DNA of 64,000 nt. It comes from a virus. Its lineage: Duplodnaviria > Heunggongvirae > Uroviricota > Caudoviricetes. The notes below the pieces were generated by a model, which saw only the letters and a program-made list of their open reading frames with translations, searched no databases and had not been told where the DNA came from. Each line of letters begins with the position of its first letter. The stretch's first letter is position 1. The stretch lies in IMG/VR virus record IMGVR_UViG_3300044984_003074; one strand, 5' to 3'. The position numbers and the translations under genes are program-made. This document shows positions 25,918-63,778 of the stretch, piece by piece.

Positions 25918-25959
25918 GAACTATACTGATATGTCAATTTTTCTTACATATTTTTTCTG

Positions 25960-26044: not shown

Positions 26045-26049
26045 TTATA

Positions 26050-26394
26050 TTATATTAGGTGTAGTAAGATATATGACAATTTATATCCTGTAAAAGCGCC
26101 CAATGCGGATGGTATTGGGAATACAATTAATTTACCTAAATCAGTTACGTATTTTGGTCTATTTACAATTTTACCCATAAAAAAGTAATATATTAAATAA
26201 CCCATTAAAACCGCAATATCTGTACGTGTTGCAATAAAAACTACTAAAGTGGCCCCTAAGAACCCAAAAGTAAAATTATCCCTTACACCTTCCCAAACTT
26301 CTTTAGTTGATGCACTTTTATATTCTTTTACAATCTTTTTGAATTGGGCTTTATGCCCCTTTTTCTTTTTTTCTATTATTTCTGTTGTTTCCAT
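26050..26394 (-). CDS. hypothetical membrane protein
   Basis: 114 aa, two TM segments. Confidence 0.3.
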   Translation of the reverse strand: METTEIIEKKKKGHKAQFKKIVKEYKSASTKEVWEGVRDNFTFGFLGATLVVFIATRTDIAVLMGYLIYYFFMGKIVNRPKYVTDLGKLIVFPIPSALGAFTGYKLSYILLHLI

Positions 26395-26395
26395 G

Positions 26396-26470
26396 TTGGA
26401 ATAGATGGACTCGAACCATCGACTTTCACCGTATCAGGATGACACTCTAACCAACTGAGTTATATTCCAT
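26396..26470 (-). tRNA. tRNA-Ile (anticodon GAU)
   Basis: D-arm CTCAGTTGGTTAGAG, loop CTGATAC, T-arm GATGGTTCGAGTCCATC. Confidence 0.65.
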
Positions 26471-26561
26471 TATTATTTTTACAAAGATAGTTAATTTATC
26501 CCATAAAAAAAATCCCCCTGACTTTTAATCAGAGGGATTTAGTATTTAAATCTCTTCTATA

Positions 26562-27140
26562 TTAAAAGTATGTTTGTTCAAAGTATAATACTTGGAACTT
26601 ATCTTTACTATCAATTAAACTCAATGCATTAATTAAGTCGTTATACTCAACTACGGCACCTTTTTGAATTTTTCTAAATTTAGTTAAAACATCAAATGTT
26701 GTAATATCATCAGAAAATACTGTTTGTGAATCTTTGTTATATGCTTTCATTAATGCCAATTCCATTTCATAAGCTCCATTAATAATTTCTTCCAAACTAT
26801 TGAAAGTATGACTAATTTTTGCTGATGGGATTTCAGGGATAATATTGAAATCGGTCATATATTGTTGTAAAATCTCAGAATGACCTAATTCATCTTTTGC
26901 CTCATTTTCAAAAAACGCTGCCGCTTTTTTGTAGTTCATATCCGCACACCAGTTAGTTGCCGCTCTGTAATAATAATGTGCAGTATATTCGTCTTTGATT
27001 CTATCAGTTAAGATTTTAATTGTCTTATCTGATAACGAGTATAATTTAGGTGACTTTGTTAAACCTGGTTTGTTTTCCGCCTCATTCAAGTGCATCACTT
27101 TAAATAATTGTTCCTTTGTTAATGTTAATTTCTTTTCCAT
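26562..27140 (-). CDS. ferritin-like protein (start at internal Met; ORF-track N-terminus is read-through of tRNA-His)
   Basis: EYTAHYYYRAA ... NEAKDELGHSEIL ... ferritin ExxH/di-iron motifs; 5' part of listed ORF 26562..27287 overlaps tRNA gene. Confidence 0.5.
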   Translation of the reverse strand: MEKKLTLTKEQLFKVMHLNEAENKPGLTKSPKLYSLSDKTIKILTDRIKDEYTAHYYYRAATNWCADMNYKKAAAFFENEAKDELGHSEILQQYMTDFNIIPEIPSAKISHTFNSLEEIINGAYEMELALMKAYNKDSQTVFSDDITTFDVLTKFRKIQKGAVVEYNDLINALSLIDSKDKFQVLYFEQTYF

Positions 27141-27176
27141 ACTAATAAATAGTCGGTATAGATGAAAAATATTAGG

Positions 27177-27249
27177 GTGACTAACGGGAATCGAACCCGT
27201 GACAACTTGGACCACAACCAAGCGCTCTACCAACTGAGCTATAGCCACC
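27177..27249 (-). tRNA. tRNA-His (anticodon GUG)
   Basis: GGTGGCTATAGCTCAGTTGGTAGAGC, loop TTGTGGT, discriminator C. Confidence 0.75.
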
Positions 27250-27254
27250 ATATG

Positions 27255-27324
27255 TTGCGTGTTTGGGTTTCGAACCCAATTGACCATCCTTATGAGAGAT
27301 AGTTCTTTTCCTCTAAGTCACGCA
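27255..27324 (-). tRNA. tRNA with CAU anticodon (Met/fMet/Ile2), short atypical D-arm
   Basis: acceptor TGCGTGA/ACACGCA, AC stem TATCT/GGATG loop CTCATAA, T-arm TTGGGTTCGAAACCCAA. Confidence 0.45.
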
Positions 27325-27330
27325 GTTTAG

Positions 27331-27403
27331 AGGTTCTATTAGGATTCGAACCTAAACTCCGAATTCCGTAGATTCGTGTGCTAATCCGTTACACCATAAA
27401 ACC
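27331..27403 (-). tRNA. tRNA-Arg (anticodon ACG)
   Basis: AC stem CGAAT/ATTCG loop CTACGGA; T-arm TTAGGTTCGAATCCTAA. Confidence 0.7.
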
Positions 27404-27485
27404 CTAATTACCGATTATTGTCCCATTTAACAATTATCATCAAAACAATCCACAAAATTAAAAACCACATACTTTATTTATTTAG

Positions 27486-27556
27486 TTACCCGACCAAGAC
27501 TCGAACTTGGAACGACTGTACCAAAAACAGTTGTGTTACCATTACACCATCGGGCA
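27486..27556 (-). tRNA. tRNA-Gln (anticodon UUG)
   Basis: AC stem ACTGT/ACAGT loop TTTTGGT; T-arm CCAAGTTCGAGTCTTGG. Confidence 0.7.
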
Positions 27557-27562
27557 ATACTG

Positions 27563-27636
27563 TGGACCATCCAGGACTCGAACCTGGGACCTTCTCGTTA
27601 TGAGCGAGCTACTCTAACCGACTGAGTTAAAGGTCC
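27563..27636 (-). tRNA. tRNA-Met (anticodon CAU)
   Basis: D-arm CTCAGTCGGTTAGAG, loop CTCATAA, T-arm CCAGGTTCGAGTCCTGG. Confidence 0.65.
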
Positions 27637-27786
27637 AAAATTGACTACTACCTGACTCCTTTCGAACTTTGCAGGCTCGTATCATTCAATAATAGTAGTC
27701 CAAGGCGTTACGCACCCATCTGATAACTTTACTTCTCTTGAGTCCGGATAAGCGCTTACCAACTCAGGGGTTGTTTCCTTGTTTGT

Positions 27787-27866
27787 GGGAGTGGAGGGAT
27801 TCGAACCCCCAATGTCGTAGACCACAGATTTACAGTCTGCTAAGCGACCAATTGCTCAACACTCCC
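27787..27866 (-). tRNA. tRNA-Tyr (anticodon GUA), long variable arm
   Basis: GGGAGTGTTGAGCAATTGG..., loop CTGTAAA, T-arm TGGGGGTTCGAATCCCTCC. Confidence 0.7.
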
Positions 27867-28168
27867 AATTATAAAACAGACAATGAGGATTCTCCGATAT
27901 TTCAGTCTTAGGGGACTAGACGGGCATCATACCCGTGTTTACCCTCGGCGGTCTCTTGGTTTGGTTGATTACTCCGAACCTCACCCCTACACTACCACTG
28001 ACGTAAGTTATAGGTCTGTCTTAATTCTTTTAGGAAAACAGAAGATGGTTGCGTGGACATCTGTTTTTACGATTAGCGTTACTTAGGTGAATACCTCCCA
28101 ACTCCGATTGTACTAGCCGGCATTCACTCTCGAACTATTAGTACAATCATTCCCCAATCAACCTTTTG
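27867..28168 (-). ncRNA. GC-rich structured non-tRNA segment inside tRNA array (stable RNA or intron-like)
   Basis: ~300 nt at ~50% GC vs ~33% genome; multiple hairpins (CGGGCATCATACCCG; GTGAAT/ATTCAC); no convincing ORF (listed 67-aa ORF rejected). Confidence 0.35.
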
Positions 28169-28249
28169 CACGCTTGGAGGGATTCGAACCCCCACCAACG
28201 GTGTTGGAGACCGTGATGCTACCGTTGCACTACAAACGTATTTATTTAC
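28169..28249 (-). tRNA. tRNA-Trp (anticodon CCA)
   Basis: AC stem ACGGT/ACCGT loop CTCCAAC; T-arm GGGGGTTCGAATCCCTC. Confidence 0.7.
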
Positions 28250-28253
28250 TGCT

Positions 28254-28297
28254 CAAATTTAAGAGTATTTACTGCTCAAATTTAAGATTTTTGAGGT
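28254..28297. repeat. 2x tandem direct repeat of 21-23 bp (ATTTACTGCTCAAATTTAAGA) between tRNA-Trp and tRNA-Cys
   Basis: copies at 28254-28274 and 28277-28297. Confidence 0.8.
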
Positions 28298-28303
28298 CGG
28301 TAC

Positions 28304-28376
28304 AGGATTTGAACCTGTGTGAATAGTTTTGCAGACTACCGCCTAAGCCACTCGGCCAACCGACCCTATCTAATTT
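28304..28376 (-). tRNA. tRNA-Cys (anticodon GCA)
   Basis: GGTCGGTTGGCCGAGTGGCTTAGGC, loop CTGCAAA, T-arm ACAGGTTCAAATCCTGT. Confidence 0.7.
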
Positions 28377-28746
28377 AAAGAACTTCAGTTAGTATTCTCC
28401 ATTCTTTTAATGTGTTTCCTTCAAAGGTAACCTCAACCGGTTTCCCTTTTAATTTATCCACAGAGTCAACCTTAGCTTCCTTCAGTAAAGTCGAAACATA
28501 TCTCATAATCTCAGAATACCATCCATCCCTATCTTCTTCAGACCATTGGGTGTGTTCCGTCCATTTTATTTGTTCTGAATCCCAATTGGCTCTTGAATCA
28601 CCAACACCCCAACTTCCACCACTTAATGTGACGTGAAGACCTAACATTGCTCCTTGATATCCACCAAGACCAAAACTTACCGACTCAATTTTCCCTAATT
28701 TCTTTTCCATATTCTTTAATTTTAATATCCTTAAGGGCTTCCTCAA
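28375..28746 (-). CDS. hypothetical protein
   Basis: 123 aa ORF (start may be internal Met at ~28710). Confidence 0.3.
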   Translation of the reverse strand: MRKPLRILKLKNMEKKLGKIESVSFGLGGYQGAMLGLHVTLSGGSWGVGDSRANWDSEQIKWTEHTQWSEEDRDGWYSEIMRYVSTLLKEAKVDSVDKLKGKPVEVTFEGNTLKEWRILTEVL

Positions 28747-28845
28747 TTTGTTTTCCTAACCATTCTTTCCACTCGTCAAAGGTAAACTTTGAATTTGGAT
28801 TCTCCAAGAGAAAGTTTTTATATTGTGTTTCTAATGTTGCCATAA

Positions 28846-29445
28846 TTAATCTAAACTATTTGGGTAATATAATAATGTTGGGTTCTTCTTTTGGATATCA
28901 ATTTCAGGATATCTATCACTAAATGATTTGACATCAAATCGAGATGTAATTAAATGTCTACCATTTTTGGTAGGTATTACTTTTTCAACCTTAAATCCAA
29001 TTGGTCTAAGGTCTTTAATAAAATCGGCGACTTCATATAAAAAATCAGGGTCAGTAGTATCAATATCAACAATCCATCTTTTTTCTTTAGTCTTTATTTG
29101 ACCAACAACTGAATCAAATAACCCTTTTTGGTTTTGAACCCCATTCTTAATTCTTTCCGCCAAATTTGACAACATATCCAAAGAAACATCTTTATGATTT
29201 TGTTTTTGAATATGAATATAAGCTCTTGCTTTAAACATTTCACAAAGTTGTTTTACCTCATCGTACCTTCTTTCCAAATGGTCAATTGAATCAATACAAT
29301 ATGTTTTAATTGTTCTAACCGATTGATGATTATCTCTTTCATTTTCAGGTTGGTCTTTCTTACGTTTAAACACATACAACATATAGAAATCACCCTTTTC
29401 TTCAAAGTTTAACAACGGTTTTATTATCTCTAAATTATCTATCAT
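28846..29445 (-). CDS. hypothetical protein
   Basis: 199 aa ORF. Confidence 0.3.
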   Translation of the reverse strand: MIDNLEIIKPLLNFEEKGDFYMLYVFKRKKDQPENERDNHQSVRTIKTYCIDSIDHLERRYDEVKQLCEMFKARAYIHIQKQNHKDVSLDMLSNLAERIKNGVQNQKGLFDSVVGQIKTKEKRWIVDIDTTDPDFLYEVADFIKDLRPIGFKVEKVIPTKNGRHLITSRFDVKSFSDRYPEIDIQKKNPTLLYYPNSLD

Positions 29446-29998
29446 ATCTTTTTATTTTTTTATACTGTAAATTTGAAATAATTAGTTCCATCAAAATCAA
29501 ATTCCGCAATTACATCATTAGTTCCCCAAACAAACCTAATATAAGAACTAATGTTGGAATAAAGATTACCTGAATTTCCAGGAAATTGGATTATAATTTT
29601 TCTCAATTTTCCAACAACAATGTTATTAATTCCAGGTTCCCCATAAATGTTTTTAACTTCAGTGGTAATTCTAACCCCACTATAATAAATTGGGTTTTGA
29701 TGTTTTAATATTTTTCGGAAATAATCAATCTCTTTCATTTTAATATCCTATTTCTTTTTTAACTTCCCATTGTTTATCGATAGGAATTCTTTCAATTCTT
29801 TCAACAGGTACAAACCCGTCAAACCCTTTATCTTTAACATCCTCAAAATGTTCTATGGTATCCAATTGGAACCCGAACTTATATCGGATGTATTGGAACT
29901 TTTCTCCGTCCCAATATGCCATGTGGTTGTTCCTACAAAATCCATTGTACCAACCTTCAACCATTTCATTTTTTGGTATCATAATTTCTATTTTTTTG

Positions 29999-30072
29999 TG
30001 ACCCCTCCGAGACTCGAACTCGGGACTCCTTCATTAAAAGTGAAGTGCTCTAGCCAACTGAGCTAAGAGGTC
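29999..30072 (-). tRNA. tRNA-Lys (anticodon UUU)
   Basis: GACCTCTTAGCTCAGTTGGCTAGAGC, loop CTTTTAA, T-arm CCGAGTTCGAGTCTCGG. Confidence 0.75.
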
Positions 30073-30476
30073 TTTTTTTCGTTCAATCATTTCTGACTGT
30101 CCCCAATACCGAATTTCAGCGGCAACCCACTTACGTGAGGGGTTAGAACTTGTGTGTTAACTTACTCCTGTTAATGGTACACTAACCAACCGACTTAGAC
30201 TCAAGTAATCGGCTCAGGTCCCCATGGTTGTAAAACCACTTCTCATCGTTCGGGAGCAAACTAGTCGTATACTACTCGACTCGTGTAGTCGACACGGGAC
30301 TCGAACCCGCACAAGGCAACCTTACAACTCCATAGTCAACACAAGTGTCTGTGACTATTGGTCTTGGGGGTTTGGGACCTTCCCTCATTACACAGTCGAC
30401 TAACAACCCCACTTCACCAGGTTAATGGACTGGCTGCCATATGGGAGTGGGGGTTTCCCGTTAATTCGGGACTCCG
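30073..30476 (-). ncRNA. ~400-nt GC-rich structured segment including a 118-nt tRNA-like minihelix (8-bp acceptor around a GTCGAC palindrome + canonical T-arm, no canonical anticodon arm)
   Basis: minihelix approx 30286-30403: 5' TAGTCGAC ... GCGGGTTCGAGTCCCGT GTCGACTA 3'; remaining sequence forms many hairpins; no ORF support. Confidence 0.35.
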
Positions 30477-30549
30477 TGGTAACGGTCAGAATCGAACTGA
30501 CGACACCTTGTTCTTCAAACAAGTGCTCTACCGACTGAGCTACGTTACC
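30477..30549 (-). tRNA. tRNA-Phe (anticodon GAA)
   Basis: GGTAACGTAGCTCAGTCGGTAGAGC, loop TTGAAGA, T-arm GTCAGTTCGATTCTGAC. Confidence 0.75.
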
Positions 30550-30697
30550 AAATAAAGATAATGATGGAGTACCCGTCTCGCTCCAATCTTAACTGCTTTC
30601 CTGAGTTTTATGAGGCCTCGGCAGAAAGGGTGATGAACTATTGCTCCATTCGGAATTGTCGACATTCCATTGAATGGTTAGAACCATTATCTTAGTA

Positions 30698-30770
30698 GTT
30701 CCTGTAGGATTCGAACCTACGACTGCTTGCATGTAAGGCAAGAACTCTTCCACTGAGCTAAGGAACTGTA
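30698..30770 (-). tRNA. tRNA-Val (anticodon UAC)
   Basis: GTTCCTTAGCTCAGTGGAAGAGT, loop CTTACAT, T-arm GTAGGTTCGAATCCTAC. Confidence 0.7.
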
Positions 30771-30774
30771 TTGT

Positions 30775-30846
30775 AGCCCTGCCGGGAGTCGAACCCGACT
30801 TTCCAGGATGAAAACCTGGCGACCTAACCGATAGTCGACAGGGCCA
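30775..30846 (-). tRNA. tRNA-Glu (anticodon UUC)
   Basis: AC stem CCAGG/CCTGG loop TTTTCAT; T-arm TCGGGTTCGACTCCCGG. Confidence 0.65.
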
Positions 30847-30908
30847 TAAATAAATCTTTTACAAAGATACAATCAATATTTCAAAGAGCAAAAGATTATA
30901 GAATAAAA

Positions 30909-30940
30909 AAACCCCGAACCTTAATTAAAAGTTCGGGGTC
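30909..30940 (-). terminator. hairpin CCCCGAAC...GTTCGGGG with T-run on minus strand
   Basis: perfect 8-bp stem; T8 run on minus strand. Confidence 0.5.
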
Positions 30941-31130
30941 TGATATGATATAAATTTATATTATTATCCTACGATTACATCCGAACTACATAGCAGCATA
31001 CGCTCATACCAACAAACTATTTGTTGTTTACTAAAGACCATATGTTGTATTGTAGTTTTCATTGTTTCTATAATTATATCAAAGATAGTCAAAATCTTCA
31101 ATTTGTCAAATATTATTTTTTTTTGTACCC

Positions 31131-31203
31131 CAAGAGAGACTCGAACTCTCAAAATCTTGTATCTAAAACAAGCGTGTCTGCCATTCCACCATCGGGGCAT
31201 ATA
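31131..31203 (-). tRNA. tRNA with UAG anticodon (Leu-reading) but short type-I variable arm
   Basis: AC stem CTTGT/ACAAG loop TTTAGAT; T-arm GAGAGTTCGAGTCTCTC; D-stem weak. Confidence 0.45.
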
Positions 31204-31297
31204 TCACATCGTACAGGCATTCTGGTTCTCGCCAACAGAAATTCCATCTTACTTAGCCCACCCTGTGCGATAGGGGTACCTGAGGATATGATAATTG

Positions 31298-31371
31298 TGA
31301 TTCGGATAGGATTCGAACCTATGACCCCAAATTTAGAAGATTTGTGCTCTATCCAGCTGAGCTACCGAACC
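31298..31371 (-). tRNA. tRNA-Arg (anticodon UCU)
   Basis: GGTTCGGTAGCTCAGCTGGATAGAGC, loop CTTCTAA, T-arm ATAGGTTCGAATCCTAT. Confidence 0.75.
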
Positions 31372-31589
31372 ATTTTCCACCAATGAGATTATTTTGGTGT
31401 AGATATCTACAGTTTTCCTATTCAAAACCCATCGCGTCTTACCGCTTAAAAGTCAACCATATACTCGGAGGTCAAGATGGTTCTCTTGCCGTTTTTCCGA
31501 CGACTCCCTCTGTAAAACCGTTTGGAGTACCAGCTACATCATTGTTTAAGTAACGATGCCAAATCTATTGAGTATCTCTATCTCAATCG

Positions 31590-31669
31590 TAGTCAGGACA
31601 GGACTCGAACCTGTAATTCCGGTTAAACCCCTCAACGGGGCCGCGTCTATCCAATTCCGCCACCCGACT
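31590..31669 (-). tRNA. type-II (Leu/Ser-like) tRNA, anticodon arm non-canonical (reads UGA by alignment)
   Basis: D-arm TGGCGGAATTGGATAGACGC (Leu-like), T-arm ACAGGTTCGAGTCCTGT; anticodon region GCCCCGTTGAGGGG forms 5-nt loop. Confidence 0.45.
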
Positions 31670-31808
31670 ATTTTAAAATTCAATTGTGGACTTCCATTTC
31701 CACTCCGATAACTGTTGTCAATGTGATTTGTGCTATTGTACTTCTAGCTTAGACACATCGGGACGCACCATAAACATATGTCAGGGTCTTGTCTTTAATT
31801 GAATTTAG

Positions 31809-31908
31809 TAGTCAGGACAGGACTCGAACCTGTGAGGATATTTAAACTTCAGCAATGATAAAGTACCTTAAAGCGTCTACCAATTCCGCCACCTAACTAT
31901 TTTGAGGT
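31809..31908 (-). tRNA. paralogous type-II tRNA-like gene, 100 nt, aberrant/extended anticodon region (possible pseudo-tRNA or small intron)
   Basis: same acceptor/D/T arms as 31590-31669 but ~20 nt longer; no canonical 7-nt loop. Confidence 0.35.
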
Positions 31909-32253
31909 TGAGAACTCCTCGTGTTGTGCAAATATAGACATAAATCTTTTCAAAATTTATAATCTCACCCGACTATTTCATTCCTATCTCACAGGAACAA
32001 CACATTTTACTTCCACTGAGTTTTTCGGTTATACTTCCAAGTTTTATGTTCTCTGTATTTGTGAGAAAATTGTCCTTTTCTGTAATGAACACCCTCATCC
32101 CAATAAGAAGGGTATTCAAACTTTAACCAAATCAATCTGTAATCTTTTGAACAAGTTGCCTTCTTCAATTTCATTCTGTTTGTATTCACACTCATAATCT
32201 TGAGTCTGTTGTTTAGCAGACCTCAAAGATTATCAAATACCTTTTTCATAATT

Positions 32254-32334
32254 TTAAATTTTGTATCGAGAGAGGGAGTCGAACCCTCACGCCTTATGGC
32301 AAGGAGTCTTAAGCCCCTCGTGTCTACCATTTCA
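32254..32334 (-). tRNA. tRNA-Leu (anticodon UAA), type II
   Basis: AC stem AGGGG/CTCCT loop CTTAAGA, long variable arm, T-arm GAGGGTTCGACTCCCTC. Confidence 0.7.
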
Positions 32335-32534
32335 CCACCTCGATATTTCTTCTACAAAGATAGTAAAATCTTTGATATAACCATAAAAAAACCCCAAACT
32401 TTTCAGTTCAGGGTTAAGTCTCTATAAATAGAATGGCTCTGAACAAATTACCGCATAAGTCTTCTTAACAGACCTTGTCTATTAAGTAATAATGTATGTA
32501 ATAATATTGTTCTCATTGTTTTTATAAATATATC

Positions 32535-33251
32535 TTATTCTGTAAAACTTTCTTCATATAAAGTATTACTATCGTTTGATTCAATATTGTCAGTATGGTC
32601 TAATGTAACAATTTTATTATTAAAGTCAAATATAAATTGACCATCAGACCCTTCATTGTTTTCCCAACCACCAAAATTTGTTGAAAGTTGAGTGTAACAC
32701 CAATCTTCAATTCCCGCAGGTACCGCACTACCATTTTGGTCAAATCTATCTTCCAAATATCCTGAATCTCCAGACCCATTATATGTTACGGTTAAAATAC
32801 CATCATTTGGTATTTCAACATCGGAAAACTCGTTTCCTTCCCATCGTTTAAATTTTTCAATGTCTTCATCAGAATCGAACTCAATCGAACTTCCATCACC
32901 TCTTTCATAAAAAGACCACCATTTACTAAACACGATTTTTTTATCTTTTACATCAATATCAAACTCAACTCTTTGGTAATTAATCATATCCATATCAAGG
33001 TGCTCAAAATTGTTTTGATTATCAACATAGTTAACAATCTTTTGAAGTATTGGAATTAATCCTGATGGGATATCCGCTCTATAATTGTTTGAAAAATGGG
33101 TTATTTCATCCCAATCAATATCGTTGGGGTCAAATACTGAATAACTATCAATATCAAACTCAATATTACCATCATACATCCCTAATGAATTAAGATAATT
33201 GGTAACTCTTCGTAAATATTTTTTTTCTTCTGGTGTTAAAATTCCTTTCAT
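32535..33251 (-). CDS. hypothetical protein
   Basis: 238 aa ORF. Confidence 0.3.
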   Translation of the reverse strand: MKGILTPEEKKYLRRVTNYLNSLGMYDGNIEFDIDSYSVFDPNDIDWDEITHFSNNYRADIPSGLIPILQKIVNYVDNQNNFEHLDMDMINYQRVEFDIDVKDKKIVFSKWWSFYERGDGSSIEFDSDEDIEKFKRWEGNEFSDVEIPNDGILTVTYNGSGDSGYLEDRFDQNGSAVPAGIEDWCYTQLSTNFGGWENNEGSDGQFIFDFNNKIVTLDHTDNIESNDSNTLYEESFTE

Positions 33252-33267
33252 AAACTATAAATATCCT

Positions 33268-33615
33268 TTAATCATCTATTTTTAATGTTCTTAACATCCA
33301 TTGTGGTCGTTTATTCTCGGAAAGGTTATTAACCCACTCTTTGGCCGATGGGATATAGTTATTACAGTCTTCTTTTACATGTTGTTCACCAACATATCTT
33401 GTGTAAACTATTTTACCATCACTATTGGTGAATTCCGTACCAAATCTTTTTTCCATTTCAAAAATCCCTTCACTATGATGTCTAAACATTCTGTGGAGTG
33501 AGTCACCAAACCAAGATTTGGTTTCATCTAACCATTCGTGTAAATGGATATAATCTTCAGGTTTTCCACCAAATTTCTTAGCGGATGATTTTGCATGTAA
33601 ATTTGGATGTGCCAT
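33268..33615 (-). CDS. hypothetical protein
   Basis: 115 aa ORF. Confidence 0.3.
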   Translation of the reverse strand: MAHPNLHAKSSAKKFGGKPEDYIHLHEWLDETKSWFGDSLHRMFRHHSEGIFEMEKRFGTEFTNSDGKIVYTRYVGEQHVKEDCNNYIPSAKEWVNNLSENKRPQWMLRTLKIDD

Positions 33616-33628
33616 AGTTTTATTTTTG

Positions 33629-33703
33629 TGGAGCTAGTGAGAATCGAACTCACCTCAGAGACATTGCAAGTGTTTCTCGCCAAGCCTTGGAACATGTAAC
33701 CCC
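33629..33703 (-). tRNA. tRNA-Ala (anticodon UGC)
   Basis: acceptor GGGGTTA/TAGCTCC with G3:U70, loop CTTGCAA, T-arm GTGAGTTCGATTCTCAC. Confidence 0.55.
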
Positions 33704-33710
33704 TTATTTG

Positions 33711-33783
33711 AGCCTCCTGTCGGAATCGAACCAACGACATCAACATTACAAATGTTGCGCTCTACCTGCTGAGCTAAGGAGGC
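33711..33783 (-). tRNA. tRNA-Thr (anticodon UGU)
   Basis: GCCTCCTTAGCTCAGCAGGTAGAGC, loop TTTGTAA, T-arm GTTGGTTCGATTCCGAC. Confidence 0.75.
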
Positions 33784-33842
33784 GTTTGTGGGTATATGCT
33801 CATCACATATTCTTGGGTTCCCACACACCCCTTGAGCAGATA

Positions 33843-33914
33843 GACGGAATCGAACCGTCGTCTCCAGATTGGAAGTCTGGAGTAATAACCCCTATACGAT
33901 ATCTGCATTTGGCG
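33843..33914 (-). tRNA. tRNA-Gly (anticodon UCC)
   Basis: AC stem CCAGA/TCTGG loop CTTCCAA; T-arm GACGGTTCGATTCCGTC. Confidence 0.7.
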
Positions 33915-33917
33915 GTC

Positions 33918-33993
33918 CCGACGGGATTCGAACCCGTACCTCACACCGTGACAGGGTGGAATTGTAACCATTCAACCACGGGACCAAAATTTC
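33918..33993 (-). tRNA. tRNA-Asp (anticodon GUC), CCA encoded
   Basis: GGTCCCGTGGTTGAATGG, loop CTGTCAC, T-arm TACGGGTTCGAATCCCGT, 3' GCCA. Confidence 0.7.
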
Positions 33994-34107
33994 AATTCAA
34001 AGGTGACAATCCTATAACAATTGAATGAGAAAGAACCGTGTTTCTCGGGTAGTGACTTCCCGTATTCTGTCTTTCTGTTTTTTATGGGGAGTCTCAACCC
34101 AATCTTT

Positions 34108-34596
34108 TTAGTTAACTAATATGTCCTTATGTTCTTCGATTACTCGTTTTAAACTACTGACATATCTTTTGTCTTGTGCGTATATTTTACCAAGTAACGC
34201 AAGGTACTCTTTTTTTGTCAAATCATTCTTGTTTTTTAACATATAATTCTGCCATAAGGAGTAATCATACACACTAAACACCCAATCTTCATAACTTGAA
34301 TACCCACTTTTGGTTTGACCGTTTGCGGATGACTCTCGTTTTTTTGGTATTCTCATACCAAATAGATTGTTCGCTGATTTGAACAATTTGGAAGTAAATT
34401 GACCTGATTCTAATACCGCTTGTGCGAATACCACATCAGGAAATTTAATTCCGTGATTAATTATCTGCTCATACAAATTTTGTCTTGTGATACTATTTTC
34501 AATAGTTGTTTCACTTTGTAATTGCTTCTCTTGTGCTTTGATTGTTAATGTTCCTAACAATAACAATCCAGTCAATAAGAATGTTTTTAACTTCAT
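34108..34596 (-). CDS. secreted GH73-family N-acetylglucosaminidase (FlgJ-like) peptidoglycan hydrolase
   Basis: 162 aa; N-terminal signal peptide; VFAQAVLESGQFTSKLFKSANNLFGM GH73 motif. Confidence 0.6.
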   Translation of the reverse strand: MKLKTFLLTGLLLLGTLTIKAQEKQLQSETTIENSITRQNLYEQIINHGIKFPDVVFAQAVLESGQFTSKLFKSANNLFGMRIPKKRESSANGQTKSGYSSYEDWVFSVYDYSLWQNYMLKNKNDLTKKEYLALLGKIYAQDKRYVSSLKRVIEEHKDILVN

Positions 34597-34667
34597 TTCT
34601 TTCTTTTTGTCTGTTTATGCTTCAGGATTACTCCATCCACGATACCACAACATTGGAAATTTTCCAC

Positions 34668-35228
34668 CTACCCCACTTGTAATAATTCAACTAAACCGTC
34701 GTGTATTTCAGAATGACAATTAGAACATACTAATATACATTTGTCTACCTCGTCTTTTAGTTTTTCAAAACTAACACTTTTTCCTGAAATTGAAAAGTCT
34801 TTTTCTTCAGGATTGAGATGATGAAATTGTAAAGCTCTGTTACATTTTTTATATCCACATAATTCACATTCACCACCCTTATAGTCAATTAATTTTTGTT
34901 TTGTTCGTTTTCTCCATTCAATAACTGCTTCAGTTTTTGAAACTGTTTTATTTTTATTTGTTGTTACAACATATTTTAAAACAGTGTTAATTGCATGTCC
35001 TTTTAATTTTGCAATTTTTTTAACAGAACCAATTTCATCATAAAGTTTTTGTAATTCTAATTTTTGTTCATCTGTCAATCTATCACTATGACCACCCATT
35101 TTATTGAGTTTACAGTGATATGATACTGTTGAAATTGCACAATGTAATTCTTTACAAATTTCTTTATAGGTTTTACCCTGATTTCTTAATTCTATTATTT
35201 TTTCGAAGTATTTACTCATTATTAACAT
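34668..35228 (-). mobile_element. HNH homing endonuclease with N-terminal HTH domains
   Basis: 186 aa; C-terminal HHLNPEEKDF...CILVCSNCHSEIH HNH motif. Confidence 0.6.
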
Positions 35229-35269
35229 TATTAGTTAATAATAACTATCACAAATATTCGAAAAGTAAA

Positions 35270-35354
35270 GCTGACACGGTAGGATTCGAACCTACGTCGG
35301 ATTTTACTCACCAGATTAACAGTCTGGACCATTCGACCTCTATGGCAACATGTC
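35270..35354 (-). tRNA. tRNA-Asn-like (anticodon GUU) with unusually long variable region
   Basis: AC stem CCAGA/TCTGG loop CTGTTAA; T-arm GTAGGTTCGAATCCTAC; 15-nt variable. Confidence 0.5.
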
Positions 35355-35360
35355 AATAAT

Positions 35361-35433
35361 GTCGGGGTGGCAGAAATCGAATCTGCTCGATGTCCTGGTC
35401 CCAAACCAGGCGACTAACCTTTAGTCCACACCC
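35361..35433 (-). tRNA. tRNA-Pro (anticodon UGG)
   Basis: CGGGGTGTGGACTAAAGGTTAGTC, loop TTTGGGA, T-arm GCAGATTCGATTTCTGC. Confidence 0.75.
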
Positions 35434-35448
35434 CGTAATAAATAAAAA

Positions 35449-44065: not shown

Positions 44066-44719
44066 ATGATAAAAATAGATAAAGATAGAAAGGTATGGAT
44101 AATCTCCGATACGCACTATGGACATAAGAATATATGTCGTGGTGTGACTGCATGGAGATTACCTGACGGTAGTATCCCATTATCCCAAACCAGAGATTTC
44201 AAAACTATTGAACAAATGAACGAATCTATTGTAAACAATATTAATAGTGTTGTTGGTCAAGATGATGTTTTGATTCACTTGGGTGATTGGAGTTTTGGAG
44301 GGTTTGAAAATGTAAAAATTTTTAGAGATAGAATTGTATGTCAAGAGATACACCTTATATTAGGTAATCACGACCACCACATTGAAAATAACCGAGGGGA
44401 TTGTCAAGAATTGTTTGCAAGCGTTAATCACTACACAAAATTGATGTATAAGTTTGGAACTTTTGTTTTGATGCACTATCCGATGGCATCGTGGGATGGT
44501 TTAAATAAAGGACACGTACACCTTCACGGACACGTACACCTTCCAACAAATCTTAGATTTGGAAAAGGTAAAAAAATGGATGTTGGGATTGATGGTAATC
44601 CAAATTTTGGTGTTTATGACATGGACGATATTGTAAGAATGATAATCAAACGTGAAATTGTGTCGGATATGTTATTTGACCACCACACAGATGAAATAAT
44701 AAATAAAGACAATGGATAA
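44066..44719 (+). CDS. calcineurin-like metallophosphoesterase
   Basis: 217 aa; SDTHYG, GDWSFGG, GNHDHH, GHVHLHGHVH. Confidence 0.6.
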   Translation: MIKIDKDRKVWIISDTHYGHKNICRGVTAWRLPDGSIPLSQTRDFKTIEQMNESIVNNINSVVGQDDVLIHLGDWSFGGFENVKIFRDRIVCQEIHLILGNHDHHIENNRGDCQELFASVNHYTKLMYKFGTFVLMHYPMASWDGLNKGHVHLHGHVHLPTNLRFGKGKKMDVGIDGNPNFGVYDMDDIVRMIIKREIVSDMLFDHHTDEIINKDNG

Positions 44720-46034: not shown

Positions 46035-46445
46035 ATGGAAAAAAAATTATACATAGTAAGAGGAGTTCCTGGTTCAGGTAAATCAACCTTTGCGAAATCA
46101 ATTGCCAAATCGTGGCAAATATTTGAGGCGGATGATTATTTTGTTAAAAATGGTAAATACGAATTCAACTTTAGTCATTTGAGAGACGCTCACAATTCTT
46201 GTAAAAGAAAAGTTCATAAATCAATGATACCAAGTTTGTTTAACTCAATATTTTATCGTAATATTGTAGTCTCAAATACATTTACCCAAGAATGGGAAAT
46301 GAAGTTTTATCAGACAATTGCAAAAAAATACGGATATACAGTTTATACCGTTATTGTTGAAAATCGTCATGGTGGCGTAAATAAACACGGAGTACCTGAA
46401 GATAAGGTAGATGTGATGAGAAAAAGAATGGAAATTAAATTATAA
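46035..46445 (+). CDS. P-loop kinase (AAA_33/polynucleotide-kinase-like)
   Basis: 136 aa; Walker A GVPGSGKST. Confidence 0.5.
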   Translation: MEKKLYIVRGVPGSGKSTFAKSIAKSWQIFEADDYFVKNGKYEFNFSHLRDAHNSCKRKVHKSMIPSLFNSIFYRNIVVSNTFTQEWEMKFYQTIAKKYGYTVYTVIVENRHGGVNKHGVPEDKVDVMRKRMEIKL

Positions 46446-46913
46446 AAACAAAAACAAAAAAAACATGCAAACACTATTATTTAACACAGCAACAAAAACA
46501 GCAAAACTTTATTTAAATAAAGCTCAAGATTCGGAAATTCTTTATGAATTTACTAATGTACCAACAGTAAAAGTAGAAGATGGTTTCTACCAAGTATTAC
46601 AATTGGATAACACCTCCACAGAAGAAAAAAGAGTTCCTGTTGCAAGATTCCCAATTGCCAACACAAACATGTTAATTGCAAAATAACATATGAAAAATTT
46701 TATCAAAAATTATGTTAATGTGCCCTTCCTAAAAGGTTCATTACTTACAATCTCGGTCATTCTTATTTTAATGTATGTTGTATTTCCGGGATTAACCGCG
46801 GCAAACATTGTATTAAATGTAATATCGGTATTGACATTAATATTAACAGGTATGTTTGTTGTAAAATACGTACAAAATCAATTATCAAAGAAAAATTAAA
46901 AAAAAAACAAATT

Positions 46914-47765
46914 ATGAAAAAAGTAGTATTAGGATTATTAGGGTTATTAATGTTGTCGGCAACATCTTGTACAACAGCAGATTCTTCAGAAGTCGCATTA
47001 GTTGTTGACCAAATAGGTAACGACAAAGGGGTTCCAAACATTGAGATGAAATCGGGATTTATTTTCTATTTCCCTCCAACTCAAGATGTATACATGTACC
47101 CAACATCAGTTCAACATAAAGTGTGGACTGCATCAGTAGATGAGGATTCTCCAACAGATGAACACATTGATGTAACATCAGGAGATGGTGCAACATTTGG
47201 TTTAGACGTAGCAATTAACTTACAATTAAAACGAGAAATGGCACCAACTTTATTTACAAAATATAGAGTAGAGATGGATGAGTTAATTAATACAAGAGTT
47301 CGTAATATTGTAAGAAAAGAGTTATTAGATAATGCTGTGTCATTCGCTTCTGATAGTTTATTACAACATAGAAATGTATATGAAGCAAATGTCACAAAAT
47401 CATTATCAACATCTTTAGATAAAGAAGGGTTTGTTCTGAATAATATTGCAATCTTAAAAATGGCGATTCCTGAATCATATAGAAAAGCTATTGAAAATAA
47501 AATTAAAGTTATTCAAGAAACTGCAACAATTAAATCTCAAACAATTCAAGCCGAGCAAACGGCTCAAAGAAAAGTTGCGGAGGCGAAAGGTAATTACGAG
47601 GCAGCCATTTACGATGCCAAAACAAAAGAAATTATGTCTCAACCAAAAATGTTGGAATTATACAGAGCAGAGACGGATAGAATATGGGCACAAAAAGGTA
47701 AATCTCCTTACGGACAAAACAATGTTTTTGGGACTACATCAGGATTATTAATTAATAGAAACTAA
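46914..47765 (+). CDS. SPFH/band-7 (prohibitin/HflK-like) lipoprotein
   Basis: 283 aa; lipobox; C-terminal AEQTAQRKVAEAKGNYEAAI coiled region typical of SPFH. Confidence 0.4.
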   Translation: MKKVVLGLLGLLMLSATSCTTADSSEVALVVDQIGNDKGVPNIEMKSGFIFYFPPTQDVYMYPTSVQHKVWTASVDEDSPTDEHIDVTSGDGATFGLDVAINLQLKREMAPTLFTKYRVEMDELINTRVRNIVRKELLDNAVSFASDSLLQHRNVYEANVTKSLSTSLDKEGFVLNNIAILKMAIPESYRKAIENKIKVIQETATIKSQTIQAEQTAQRKVAEAKGNYEAAIYDAKTKEIMSQPKMLELYRAETDRIWAQKGKSPYGQNNVFGTTSGLLINRN

Positions 47766-48326
47766 AAATATGTTAGTAAATCTTAGTAGAAGTTCTTGGC
47801 ACTCAAAGTATTATAATTTCGTTAAAGGATATTATCCTACTTACGAATTTAAAAGTTTATGTCCATATTTTTGGACAATAGTAACATTAATTTTGTTACT
47901 ACCTGTAATTTTGATTTGGAAAGGGTTTAAAACTTTAATAGTTTCTCCAACCAAAAAGATTGTGAAAATCACAAAAAAAGAACCAAAAAACAAACCATAT
48001 AAAGAACCAACTAAGTTCATAAAATGGTGTCAAAGAAATGATTCAAAAATAACAAAAGGGTTTCAATATTTGTATTTTGGACTTATGGGTGGATTATTAG
48101 TTCTTATGATTACCGCTGGTCTATATGATTTATTTTCAACTAAAGGGTTTTTAATGGGATTAATTTATATCTTTGCAGGGATTGGAGCATTAACCACATC
48201 AGTATTATCAATATGGGGTATTATCTCTTTTTTTGAAACTGATAGTTGGAAAATGATTAAAGGAATGTCATATTCAATAAAAAATAAAGTATGTCCCATG
48301 ATAACTTGGGAATAAAACAATAAAAA

Positions 48327-49409
48327 ATGACCGTAGATATAAACATATTAAACGATTACATAGAAAGAGGGTTGGTGGTTAAAAATGACCACCCAACCCT
48401 TCCTATTTCAATATACAATTATTCTCGTACTTGTCAGTATGAGAATAACTGGGATAGTGTTACTAAAATTTGCCGAGGGCTTATCTTGGATAATGAAGGT
48501 AATGTTGTTGCAAAATCATTTAATAAGTTTTTCAACTACGAAGAATTAACCTTTAAAGACATCCCCGAAGAAACTTTTGAAGTATATGAAAAATTAGATG
48601 GTTCTTTAGGTATTTTATTTTGGTTTAGAGGAAATTGGATTTTGGCAAGTAAAGGTTCGTTTATTTCTGACCAATCAATTAGAGGGACTAAGATATTAAA
48701 TGAAAAATACAATGTTGAAGTTTTACCAAAAGGTTATACTACCGTTGTAGAGATTATTTACCCTGAAAATCGTATTGTTTGTGATTATGGTGATGATGAA
48801 GAATTGGTTGTATTATGTATGATAAGTAATGTCTCAGGTAAAGAATTAGATTATACTTCAATGTTATCCATCAATGAAGTAAGTGGTTTACCAACCGTTA
48901 AAAAATACGATGATGTAACCGATTACGACATACTTAAATCTCAAATAACTCAAAACCGCGAAGGTTATGTTATTCGTTTTAGAAACGGATTTCGTATGAA
49001 AATAAAAGGGGAAGAATATGTTCGTTTACATAGAATCTTAACTGGATTCTCAAATGTTGACATATGGGAATATCTAAAAGATGGTAAAGATGTCTCTGAA
49101 CTATTAGATAAAGTCCCTGATGAATTTGATAAATGGGTTAAAAATACCATTAGAGATTTAAGATATGGGTTTTTTCAAATATCTGAAAGAGCTGGTAAAC
49201 TTCACGATGGATTCCGTTATGGAAAATATGGTGATGTGGACCCTGAACCAACAAAAAAAGAATTTGCGGAGTTTGTATTAAAACAACAAGAAGTATTACG
49301 ACCAATAATGTTTGCCATGTGGGATAAAAAACCATATGATGAGATTATTTGGAAATTGATTAAACCACAATATAGTAAACCGTTTTGGCAAAAAGAAATT
49401 GAACCATGA
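48327..49409 (+). CDS. ATP-dependent RNA ligase, T4 Rnl1-like
   Basis: 360 aa; motif I YEKLDGSL (KxDGSL), VVEIIYPEN, EGYVIRFRNGFRMKIKGEEY (motif IV/V KxK). Confidence 0.6.
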   Translation: MTVDINILNDYIERGLVVKNDHPTLPISIYNYSRTCQYENNWDSVTKICRGLILDNEGNVVAKSFNKFFNYEELTFKDIPEETFEVYEKLDGSLGILFWFRGNWILASKGSFISDQSIRGTKILNEKYNVEVLPKGYTTVVEIIYPENRIVCDYGDDEELVVLCMISNVSGKELDYTSMLSINEVSGLPTVKKYDDVTDYDILKSQITQNREGYVIRFRNGFRMKIKGEEYVRLHRILTGFSNVDIWEYLKDGKDVSELLDKVPDEFDKWVKNTIRDLRYGFFQISERAGKLHDGFRYGKYGDVDPEPTKKEFAEFVLKQQEVLRPIMFAMWDKKPYDEIIWKLIKPQYSKPFWQKEIEP

Positions 49410-50268: not shown

Positions 50269-50274
50269 GATAAG

Positions 50275-63373: not shown

Positions 63374-63778
63374 ATGGTTAAAATTTATTTAGATGATGTT
63401 AGAACACCTGTTGATAAAGATTGGACCGTAGTTAGAAACTACGAACAATTTGTTGACACAGTTACTTACATCGGATTGGAAAACATTGAGTTAATCTCTT
63501 TGGACCATGATTTGGGAGATACTGCAATGGCTGAATGGCATAAAAATGTTTATCACAACTATACTTTAAATTATGATAACATTTTAGAAAAAACTGGGAT
63601 GGATTGTGTGAAATGGTTAATCAATCAATGGTTAGATGGACAACCTGTAGTTGAAGTGGTAGTACACTCTGCAAATGCCGTTGGTAGTGCGAATATGATG
63701 GGATACATAAACAACTACAGACACATTCACAGATTACCTCAGAATTGTGTTAGAGTTCAAATTGAACATACAGTATAA
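63374..63778 (+). CDS. hypothetical protein (possible cyclic-phosphate-processing receiver-like domain)
   Basis: 134 aa; MVKIYLDDVRTP...SLDHDLGD acidic motifs. Confidence 0.25.
   Translation: MVKIYLDDVRTPVDKDWTVVRNYEQFVDTVTYIGLENIELISLDHDLGDTAMAEWHKNVYHNYTLNYDNILEKTGMDCVKWLINQWLDGQPVVEVVVHSANAVGSANMMGYINNYRHIHRLPQNCVRVQIEHTV

Follow-up and report, generated by a model that had tools for sequence, protein, structure and literature searches.

A dispersed set of predicted RNA-repair genes in a T4-like phage: an Rnl1-family ligase, a stand-alone kinase and a metallophosphoesterase

We analyzed 64,000 nucleotides of DNA from a virus of the Caudoviricetes (IMG/VR record IMGVR_UViG_3300044984_003074; this whole stretch is called the window here), with attention to the gene for an Rnl1-family RNA ligase, a small kinase gene upstream of it, and the phosphoesterase genes whose products could act alongside them. 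We put at roughly 0.6 the probability that this T4-like phage encodes a distributed pathway for mending RNA breaks whose two ends bear a 2',3'-cyclic phosphate and a 5'-OH, the most likely targets being RNAs such as tRNAs that are cut by the host. Host anticodon nucleases and other metal-independent RNases leave ends of this kind, and phage RNA repair is a classic counter to tRNA-cleaving host defenses, as when T4 Pnkp and Rnl1 oppose PrrC. A sequence-only reading of the window had proposed a T4-style repair set consisting of the ligase, the kinase, and two small HAD phosphatases. All four of its open reading frames (ORFs) are present where it placed them, each with many conserved homologues and with family matches well past what chance would give, and the set is upheld by the ligase, the kinase, and a gene neighborhood that is found in many unrelated phages; the HADs are poorly supported as its 3'-end healers. 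As that reading proposed, the predicted healing activities are divided among distinct small genes, two of which, for a metallophosphoesterase at 44066-44719 and a cRec (cyclic-phosphate-processing Receiver) domain protein at 63374-63778, were missing from that reading's list.

A divergent member of the Rnl1 ligase family

The predicted sealing enzyme is a 360-residue ATP-dependent RNA ligase (48327..49409, + strand) that sequence and modeled fold both assign to the Rnl1 family, as had been proposed. It passes the Pfam threshold for RNA_lig_T4_1 (PF09511; E = 5e-19, 69 bits against a cut-off of 28), matches the T4 RnlA family phrog_562 over residues 13-352 (E = 1e-66), and finds T4 Rnl1 as its sole match in a PDB sequence search, in three entries at E of about 5e-13. 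The family is large, with more than 7,400 protein clusters of homologues. The KxDGSL motif and the downstream ligase motifs that had first drawn attention to this gene are conserved: motif I is EKLDGSL, with K89 as the candidate nucleotidyl-transfer lysine, and K89, D91, G92, S93, and L94 are invariant among 41 homologues. T4 rnlA was taken from NC_000866 and aligned to the window ligase with MAFFT, which places E88-K89-L-D91-G-S-L94 on T4 K99-EDGSL. Eleven residues are reportedly essential in T4 Rnl1 by Shuman-laboratory mutagenesis, and all 11 are identical in the window ligase, covering motifs III, IV, and V as well as upstream residues specific to Rnl1. The correspondence is R50, K67, F69, K89, G92, and K109 to T4 R54, K75, F77, K99, G102, and K119, and E142, E212, G213, K225, and K227 to T4 E159, E227, G228, K240, and K242.

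A Foldseek search with the AlphaFold model of the ligase returns T4 Rnl1 as its top three matches (5tt6, 2c5u, and 9do4; E of about 1e-14 over about 378 columns), at a template modeling (TM) score of only 0.52 and a root-mean-square deviation of about 14 Å. Fungal Trl1 and archaeal Rnl3 ligases follow, T4 Rnl2 reaches a TM score of 0.29, and DNA ligases appear at E values above 8e-4. Structure-based alignment gives about 20% identity to T4 Rnl1. The all-helical C-terminal domain of T4 Rnl1 confers its tRNA specificity; the window ligase is modeled with helices from residue 229 to 344 (predicted local distance difference test score (pLDDT) 79-93), the sequence similarity to T4 Rnl1 in this C-terminal region is low, and a tRNA specificity cannot be read from the sequence. 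Other ligase families were considered for this protein, namely Rnl2 with PF09414 (RNA_ligase; 21 bits, below threshold), Rnl3, Rnl5, and the DNA ligases, and all of them are clearly behind Rnl1 by both sequence and fold. A better alignment to DNA ligases, Rnl2, or Rnl3, which the sequence-only reading had named as the outcome that would count against it, was found neither by sequence nor by Foldseek.

A stand-alone kinase of the polynucleotide kinase type

The gene at 46035..46445 (+ strand) encodes a stand-alone P-loop kinase of 136 residues that resembles polynucleotide kinases and carries the motif GVPGSGKST; we predict it to be a 5'-OH kinase that heals 5' ends. Its end lies 1,881 bases from the start of the ligase gene, in agreement with the 1.9 kb given earlier. 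The protein scores above threshold for Pfam AAA_33 (E = 6e-9) and matches two PHROG families, phrog_2071, labeled 'ATPase' (E = 2e-37), and phrog_505, labeled 'polynucleotide kinase' (E = 3e-9). Its best PDB sequence match is the kinase domain of T4 Pnk (E = 0.002), a tblastn search with it reaches an annotated pseT gene directly, and in a single comparison a profile built from 35 members of the family aligned to T4 Pnkp residues 1-113 (E = 5e-10).

The AlphaFold2 model of the kinase has a mean pLDDT of 83.7 and is good over residues 1-110. Foldseek ranks 1-13 are occupied only by the kinase domain of Clostridium thermocellum Pnkp (CthPnkp) or by T4 Pnk (E = 1e-5 to 5e-4, TM scores 0.63-0.72), with other kinases lower, shikimate, gluconate, and adenylylsulfate (APS) kinases among them (TM scores of at most 0.65), and nucleoside monophosphate (NMP) kinases such as adenylate and UMP/CMP kinases below 0.5. 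The sequence-only reading had raised an NMP or deoxy-NMP kinase as the identity that would undo its assignment. This identity was rejected, the thymidylate kinase PHROGs matching only at E = 3e-3 to 4e-3 and the adenylate and UMP/CMP kinases staying under the TM score just given. Fold and sequence comparisons therefore support a kinase that is closest to the polynucleotide kinase type.

Residues invariant in the kinase family are K16, D33 (T4 D35), S80-N81-T82, R111, H112, and H118, the last three within or near a motif of the form ENRH...HGVP. The active site of T4 Pnk comprises the P-loop residues K15 and S16, the general base D35, Arg38, and Arg126. Of these, T4 K15/S16 and D35 align with K16/S17 and D33 of the window kinase, which are invariant or nearly so. 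The invariant R111 of the ENRH motif may be the counterpart of T4 R122 or R126, although the alignments stop at residue 109. The family is widespread. INPHARED has it in 633 phage records, among them Pakpunavirus, coliphages of the rV5-like and phi92-like kinds, and phages of Campylobacter, Vibrio, and Acinetobacter, and metagenomes add more than 3,900 protein clusters, nearly all with proteins of 135-155 residues. A literature search found no biochemical study of this 136-residue kinase family.

A metallophosphoesterase is the kinase's most constant neighbor

Upstream of the kinase, the gene at 44066..44719 (+ strand) encodes a calcineurin-like dinuclear metallophosphoesterase of 217 residues, which is the best-linked candidate for a combined cyclic phosphodiesterase and 3'-phosphatase. 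It matches Pfam Metallophos (E = 1e-7, 33 bits against a cut-off of 21.5) and phrog_547 (E = 3e-43), and it keeps all the metal-binding motifs of the superfamily (DxH, GD, GNH(D/E), H, and GH) in the form of D15-T-H17, G73-D74, G100-N101-H102-D103, H137, and G155-H156, each at least 95% conserved across 42 distinct homologues. The metallophosphoesterase domain of CthPnkp and lambda phosphatase, both of which hydrolyze 2',3'-cyclic phosphates, have been shown to be cyclic phosphodiesterase-monoesterases (PMC2190708). Parts of a single 737-position 'RNA ligase' profile, phrog_8238, are matched by the kinase (positions 2-109, E = 1e-8), the metallophosphoesterase (positions 191-259, a weak E = 5e-3), and the ligase (positions 421-676, E = 1e-18). 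Because the three window proteins match separate parts of it, this profile suggests that fused kinase-phosphoesterase-ligase proteins exist, with the domain order of bacterial Pnkp.

Gene linkage was surveyed by searching 80 IMG/VR loci that carry a kinase homologue of 52-79% identity with the window proteins, within 10 kb of the kinase. The counts are descriptive and do not represent independent events, as many of the loci are short or mutually related, and the shortness of many loci makes the counts lower bounds. In 53 of the 80 loci the metallophosphoesterase is near the kinase, without exception on its strand; the median gap is 208 bp, and 40 of the 53 are within 500 bp. It is upstream in 36 of these loci and downstream in the other 17. 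The Rnl1 ligase is near the kinase in 30/80, again always on the same strand (median gap 711 bp), and where linked it often abuts or overlaps the kinase gene. By comparison, the 13 other ORFs that neighbor the kinase and ligase in the window are each found in 0-18 loci. Where all three genes are present, their order is metallophosphoesterase-kinase-ligase in 17 loci and ligase-metallophosphoesterase-kinase in 9.

The same genes are found together in cultured phages, where Pfam and tblastn searches bore out the identity of the ligases and the phosphoesterases. Metallophosphoesterase, ligase, and kinase are three contiguous genes in the Plateaulakevirus Aeromonas phage phiA009; an HD hydrolase and the metallophosphoesterase are followed by ligase and kinase in the Pseudomonas phages PaP1 (Pakpunavirus) and NoPa; and ligase and kinase are followed by the phosphoesterase in Acinetobacter phage D22 (AbaM_D22, Saclayvirus). 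Since the linkage outlasts rearrangement and spans unrelated cultured phage genera, it argues for a functional unit of metallophosphoesterase, kinase, and ligase. The linkage figures also make it more likely that 3'-end healing is of the bacterial Pnkp/lambda-phosphatase type than of the T4 DxDxT type.

Among close relatives of the window, the usual arrangement is the metallophosphoesterase, three or four small ORFs, the kinase, a 73-residue ORF, and the ligase, and in three loci (L005-L007) that 73-residue ORF alone separates kinase from ligase. Its counterpart in the window directly follows the kinase (46465..46686, + strand); it recurs in 10/80 loci, with a median of 20 bp between the kinase and it, as well as in L005-L007, and has no family match in Pfam, PHROGs, or NCBIfam. 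Within the window, + strand ORFs abut or overlap from 43737 to 51084 in a run that holds all three genes. A scan of 43-51.5 kb gave no convincing + strand terminator within this run, the part between the metallophosphoesterase and ligase genes included, and this packed same-strand run fits co-transcription without proving it. Sigma-70-like sites in the same interval number 35, against 47 in shuffled sequence; the scan covered this promoter type and not those of Bacteroidota, and says nothing firm on transcription units.

Evidence against the pathway and two competing explanations

A number of observations weigh against the repair pathway proposed here. The ligase falls short of the NCBIfam equivalog TIGR02308, 'T4 RnlA family' (71 bits against a cut-off of 242), which marks it as divergent within the family and as no close orthologue of T4 RnlA; its AlphaFold model is also moderate overall (pLDDT 72.7, predicted TM score 0.50). 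The kinase is about 15-35 residues shorter than the T4 and Cth kinase domains, its residues 110-136 are modeled at low confidence, and T4 R38, a residue that contacts the phosphate on the 3' side of the acceptor nucleotide, is matched in the alignment by a near-invariant phenylalanine (F36), so that acceptor binding must differ from that of T4 Pnk. For the metallophosphoesterase, a PDB sequence search (E up to 1) returned neither the CthPnkp phosphatase nor lambda phosphatase, its sole PDB relative being the uncharacterized Aquifex protein aq_1665 (E = 7e-4). Homology to those two phosphatases is thus unsupported by this search and only the analogy is kept; an endoglucanase match at E = 0.3 was treated as chance. 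Its best NCBIfam match is the DNA-ligase-associated PdeM, a weak one (E = 5e-5, 23 bits against a cut-off of 150). Finally, 27 of the 80 kinase loci lack the metallophosphoesterase and 50 lack the Rnl1 ligase within 10 kb, and in the window itself kinase and ligase are parted by a block of SPFH and membrane-protein genes (46690-48315).

Some of these points could be accommodated if the kinase, perhaps together with the metallophosphoesterase and cRec, acted on small molecules such as nucleotides, NAD+ or ADP-ribose derivatives, or cyclic-nucleotide immune signals, as part of a nucleotide-centered anti-defense island in which the ligase is independent. The loss of T4 R38 and the many kinase-metallophosphoesterase loci without a nearby Rnl1 ligase would both fit such a role, and Foldseek ranks 14-16 of the kinase include the NAD-kinase toxin AvrRxo1 and shikimate kinase. 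Iyer et al. (PMC9503650) call the rV5-type neighbor 'a nucleotide kinase' and place its neighborhood in NAD+/ADP-ribose-linked systems. In PaP1 and NoPa, moreover, the genes after the kinase include ones with the annotations ribose-phosphate pyrophosphokinase and nicotinamide phosphoribosyltransferase, as well as one for a Macro-like 'phosphatase'. However, the 13 best fold matches of the kinase are all polynucleotide kinases (TM scores 0.63-0.72 versus 0.43-0.52), its sequence searches reach T4 Pnk first, and the ligase, often abutting or overlapping it, is its second most frequent same-strand neighbor. A Pfam scan of about 85 window ORFs, which left some small ORFs outside it, found no sirtuin, KptA, Nudix, or MazG, and likewise no Hen1, RtcB, or 2H protein. 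We consider a small-molecule role quite improbable.

The PaP1 and NoPa genes just named, together with the HD hydrolase, flank the ligase-kinase pair in both phages and resemble an NAD+-reconstitution anti-defense module; by that likeness, the Pakpunavirus cassette sits in an anti-defense island.

We judge it still less probable that the ligase mainly serves a purpose other than repair, whether tail-fiber attachment in the manner of T4 gp63 or a DNA role shared with the kinase and metallophosphoesterase, like the PdeM/Lhr damage response, with tRNA repair incidental. T4 annotation does list Rnl1 also as gp63, a catalyst of tail-fiber attachment, and the window phage is T4-like; T4 Pnk also acts on DNA, as PDB entries with single-stranded DNA attest, and PdeM, the closest NCBIfam family of the metallophosphoesterase, belongs to a ligase-associated DNA-damage response. 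That family match is far below its cut-off, though, and the fold and family of the ligase are those of RNA ligases, with DNA ligases distant. The nucleotidyl-transfer residues are strictly conserved, which would be needless for a purely structural role, and the linkage of ligase, kinase, and phosphoesterase extends to non-T4-like phages, PaP1, phiA009, and D22 among them.

HAD phosphatases, cRec, and other candidates for end processing

The sequence-only reading had cast two HAD proteins with a DxDGT motif as stand-ins for the Pnkp phosphatase. Both ORFs encode HAD-type proteins, and the motif is present in only one of them. The first, HAD1 (22358..23059, + strand; 233 residues), is a HAD phosphatase of the 'Swiss-army-knife' (SAK) family that passes the Pfam threshold for HAD_SAK_2 (E = 4e-17, 63 bits against a cut-off of 27.5). 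Its motif I reads DNDGV, its residues D46, D48, S111/S112, and D185-D186 are at least 95% conserved over 46 homologues, and it has no significant relative in the PDB. HAD1 could be a 2'/3'-phosphate monoesterase, and its membership in the repair set is likewise conjectural; we know of no test of HAD_SAK_2 activity on RNA ends. The second, HAD2 (23626..24021, + strand; 131 residues), is a small HAD-type phosphatase that does carry DIDGT and keeps its catalytic aspartates. It matches two 'polynucleotide kinase' families, phrog_415 (E = 2e-10) and the phosphatase part of phrog_505 (profile positions 161-240, E = 5e-5), and reaches no Pfam threshold, including that of HAD_PNKP (18 bits against 27.6); no significant PDB match was found. 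The link of HAD2 to RNA repair is weak.

If these HADs, at 22-24 kb, were the 3'-phosphatase and cyclic phosphodiesterase half of a split, DxDxT-type Pnkp that works with the kinase and Rnl1, the metallophosphoesterase would have to do something else. Much about the two proteins themselves would suit this, as both keep catalytic aspartates, HAD2 resembles the phosphatase part of the T4 Pnkp PHROG, and HAD1 is a bona fide HAD_SAK_2 protein, from a family proposed to remove terminal RNA phosphates and found as stand-alone genes in jumbo phages (Iyer et al., PMC7824862). Both also lie beside the tRNA array of the window, and in relatives HAD1 is often next to cRec, with 10 of 80 HAD1 loci showing cRec within 1 kb and 29 showing it within 10 kb. 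Their linkage to the kinase, however, tells against it. Only 15/80 loci have HAD1 near the kinase, with a median gap of 7.6 kb and a shared strand in 11 of the 15, which is no better than unrelated neighboring ORFs, and HAD2 is near the kinase in none of the 80; none of the 80 HAD1 loci contains an Rnl1 ligase, HAD2 stays below every curated family threshold, and the metallophosphoesterase is far more tightly tied to the kinase than either. HAD2 accompanies HAD1 and the tRNA array in 8 close relatives only, a togetherness that may simply reflect shared ancestry. We find it unlikely that the HADs supply the 3'-healing half, and regard them as peripheral to the repair set at best.

The cRec domain protein (63374..63778, + strand; 134 residues) is a predicted opener of cyclic phosphates. 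It matches Pfam cREC_REC (PF20274; E = 8e-23, 81 bits against a cut-off of 27) and phrog_1479 (E = 1e-27), has conserved D7-D8 and D44-H45-D46 and no histidine-kinase partner, and in 13/80 loci lies no more than 10 kb from the kinase, twice immediately beside it. The family has been predicted to open 2',3'-cyclic phosphates and reported to be linked to RNA ligases (PMC7824862, PMC9503650), and is experimentally uncharacterized (PMC9503650).

Two further genes were noted in this connection. Two genes upstream of cRec, 62056-62748 encodes a second calcineurin-like metallophosphoesterase (230 residues, phrog_1649), unrelated to the one at 44066 (BLASTP E = 0.03); it was excluded as a member of the repair set, as it is seldom near the kinase (7/80 loci). 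On the opposite strand, 14943-15674 encodes a 243-residue nucleotidyltransferase of the Pol-beta superfamily (NTP_transf_2, E = 1.5e-4; phrog_36119, E = 1.5e-43). It could be an enzyme of the CCA-adding or RlaP-like type that extends RNA 3' ends or repairs RNA, and 3 of the 80 HAD1 loci have a homologue some 9-10 kb away from HAD1.

A model for healing and sealing

We propose that a break in host-cut RNA would be mended by proteins from across the window. The 3' end would be converted to a 3'-OH, mainly by the candidate metallophosphoesterase (44066-44719), acting as cyclic phosphodiesterase and monoesterase by analogy with CthPnkp and lambda phosphatase. Both cRec (63374-63778) and the SAK-type HAD (22358-23059) could assist it or substitute for it where the end chemistry differs, and the two might form a two-step alternative route. 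Phosphorylation of the 5'-OH would fall to the kinase (46035-46445), whose P-loop would contribute K16 and whose general base would be D33. The ligase (48327-49409) would then be adenylylated on K89, forming a K89-AMP intermediate, and would close the nick between 3'-OH and 5'-PO4, the most plausible site being a tRNA anticodon loop. By this model, the phage would use the pathway against host defenses that act on RNA, with the phosphoesterases presumably dividing the labor among them.

We also entertain, tentatively and as a possibility that we doubt more than we credit, a broader view in which the kinase and its near-constant metallophosphoesterase are a widespread two-protein functional replacement for T4 Pnkp, with acceptor recognition that differs (Phe for Arg38). 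The pair would then be one of three parallel routes of 3'-end healing (metallophosphoesterase, cRec, and SAK-HAD), each for the ends left by a different host RNase.

No new principle is involved here, as neighborhoods of this kind had already been predicted by comparative genomics; what this analysis adds is the fold evidence for a kinase of the polynucleotide type, the linkage figures for the metallophosphoesterase, and the correction concerning the HADs. The logic of T4 repair appears to be built from separate parts in an abundant environmental lineage of T4-like phages. As cultured phages of Pseudomonas, Aeromonas, and Acinetobacter also have the compact metallophosphoesterase-kinase-Rnl1 cassette, and many E. 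coli phages have the kinase, these carriers offer an easy experimental entry to a very common kinase family.

Source phage and genomic context

The window has a G+C content of about 32%, and a Pfam scan found T4-like structural genes in it, among them a portal (Portal_T4, E = 3e-75), a prohead protease (Peptidase_S77), and a T4-like large terminase gene. A megablast search of 40-55 kb against INPHARED (50,697 phage records) gave a single 146-bp match, in a thymidylate synthase gene of Flavobacterium phages; by this comparison there is no close cultured relative, and the window has weak affinities to Flavobacterium and Tenacibaculum phages. An identical ligase protein is encoded on 15 metagenome contigs, JGI assemblies among them, with the local gene order kept. 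From the T4-like structural genes, the lack of a close relative, and the occurrence of HAD1 relatives on viral contigs of up to 430 kb, the source is an uncultivated and probably very large T4-like phage.

ARAGORN predicts an array of 22 tRNA genes (25959..35435, - strand) that includes tRNA-Lys(UUU) at 29998-30072, and a 23rd gene outside it at 57490-57578. These genes are context for the pathway, either as candidate repair substrates or as a parallel tRNA-replacement strategy, and a large set including tRNA-Lys(UUU) fits a phage pressed by tRNA-targeting defenses. The array is interspersed with genes for ferritin-like, glucosaminidase, DUF6915, DUF6878, and HNH endonuclease proteins; one HNH endonuclease lies within it (34668-35228) and another just outside (36162-36650). 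The ferritin ORF (26562-27287, 241 residues) overlaps a tRNA-His on the same strand, and its true start is probably further downstream, because its Pfam match begins only at residue 90. There are two tRNA-Gln(UUG) calls, of which the copy at 31589-31669 is unusually long at 81 nucleotides.

Several neighbors of the cassette deserve description. The block at 46690-48315 comprises a 69-residue membrane protein, a 283-residue SPFH/Band 7 lipoprotein (phrog_200), and a 181-residue membrane protein. It is absent from L005-L007 and from two further relatives (L010 and L011), and an SPFH homologue is present in another (L009). Given that close relatives have the 73-residue ORF alone between kinase and ligase, the block has been inserted into the cassette; it has the look of a polymorphic moron, possibly with a role in superinfection exclusion. 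Between metallophosphoesterase and kinase, 45304-45630 encodes a 108-residue protein that matches phrog_839 (E = 1e-19), a T4-like small gene of unassigned function; metagenome gene calls list it as Pfam T4_Y16D, and our Pfam scan gave no match. Directly 3' of the ligase, 49837-50676 holds two auxiliary metabolic genes, for a 4HBT thioesterase (143 residues) and an MGS-like domain protein (133 residues); in relatives, too, the thioesterase comes after the ligase. In a locus from a more distant relative (L004, 8886-10408 of JGI contig Ga0620986_01448; kinase 64% identical), a gene for the tmRNA-binding protein SmpB directly precedes the metallophosphoesterase-kinase pair and ties it to ribosome rescue; no Rnl1 was called within 10 kb there.

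Further along, 51254-52669 encodes an unusually long thymidylate-synthase-family protein of 471 residues, whose Pfam match falls in two stretches over residues 6-390 against a 266-position model. About 146 bp of this gene (approximately 51958-52103) are 96.6% identical to thyA of Flavobacterium phage 'immuto', and relatives are 376-382 residues long, one of them followed by a GIY-YIG homing endonuclease. The protein may carry insertions or may be an enzyme of the dNMP hydroxymethylase type. Elsewhere in the window, 16262-18829 includes a gene for a ClpB/ClpC-like double AAA+ chaperone (670 residues) and, divergently upstream, one for a 128-residue protein with two UVR motifs (McsA-like?), and a ClpP protease gene lies 18 kb away at 37069-37749. 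The occurrence of these ClpB/ClpC-like, UVR-motif, and ClpP genes together suggests a phage-borne Clp proteolysis system.

Comparison with known repair systems

The window set resembles T4 Pnkp (pseT) and Rnl1 (rnlA/gp63) in several respects. The ligase is of the same family, keeps the residues reportedly essential in T4 Rnl1, and has a C-terminal helical region that aligns with Rnl1 in the fold search, at the low TM score given above; the kinase is in the same clade as the N-terminal domain of Pnkp; and in both phages, which share T4-like structural genes, the linkage is loose and on one strand with small unrelated genes in between, pseT and rnlA being 1.4 kb apart in T4. Unlike T4 Pnkp, the window kinase is free-standing, with 136 residues (135-155 in homologues) and without a fused DxDxT phosphatase, and has Phe at the R38 position. 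The phosphoesterase that travels with it is a metallophosphoesterase and not a HAD, the window HADs being separate genes 22 kb away that belong to other HAD subfamilies. The ligase, at about 20% identity to Rnl1, is under the NCBIfam RnlA equivalog cut-off.

With the bacterial Pnkp-Hen1 (C. thermocellum Pnkp) and Pnkp1-Rnl-Hen1 systems, the set shares the same three predicted chemistries, namely a P-loop 5' kinase, a dinuclear metallophosphoesterase, and an ATP-dependent ligase. In the fold search the window kinase is matched best by the kinase domain of CthPnkp, and all three window proteins match the single-chain profile phrog_8238. It differs in having three separate genes, a ligase of the Rnl1 type in place of the Pnkp C-terminal ligase type, a metallophosphoesterase that has no detectable sequence match to the Cth phosphatase, and no Hen1 or other methyltransferase partner among the ORFs scanned. 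Fungal and plant Trl1 likewise combines an Rnl1-clade adenylyltransferase, a P-loop polynucleotide kinase, and an opener of cyclic phosphates (predicted in the window), and Trl1 ligase domains (8rbj and 9qw7) are among the top fold matches of the window ligase. Trl1, however, is a single polypeptide whose 2H phosphodiesterase leaves a 2'-phosphate, so that Tpt1 is needed, and whose kinase prefers GTP, none of which is evident in the window.

The closest description in the literature is the predicted rV5-type neighborhood of Iyer, Burroughs, Aravind et al. (2021, 2022). The neighborhood for which phage rV5 is the prototype contains a T4-like tRNA ligase, cREC, a nucleotide kinase, MazG, a sirtuin, and at times a phosphoesterase of the calcineurin-like type (PMC9503650, section 3.7.3), and the jumbo-phage inventory lists RNA ligases, polynucleotide kinases, HAD, calcineurin-like, and HD phosphatases, and stand-alone SAK-HADs (PMC7824862, section 3.4.9). 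Compared with the rV5/Mydo-type and jumbo-phage SAK-HAD neighborhoods, the window shares the T4-like tRNA ligase, small kinase, calcineurin-like phosphoesterase, cRec, SAK-HAD, and many tRNAs, and rV5-like phages carry homologues of the window kinase. In contrast to the rV5/Mydo type, the scanned ORFs include no sirtuin, MazG, KptA, or Nudix protein, and the parts of the set are scattered across about 41 kb (22.4-63.8 kb) and do not form one neighborhood. The metallophosphoesterase, which is occasional in the rV5/Mydo type, is here the most constant partner of the kinase.

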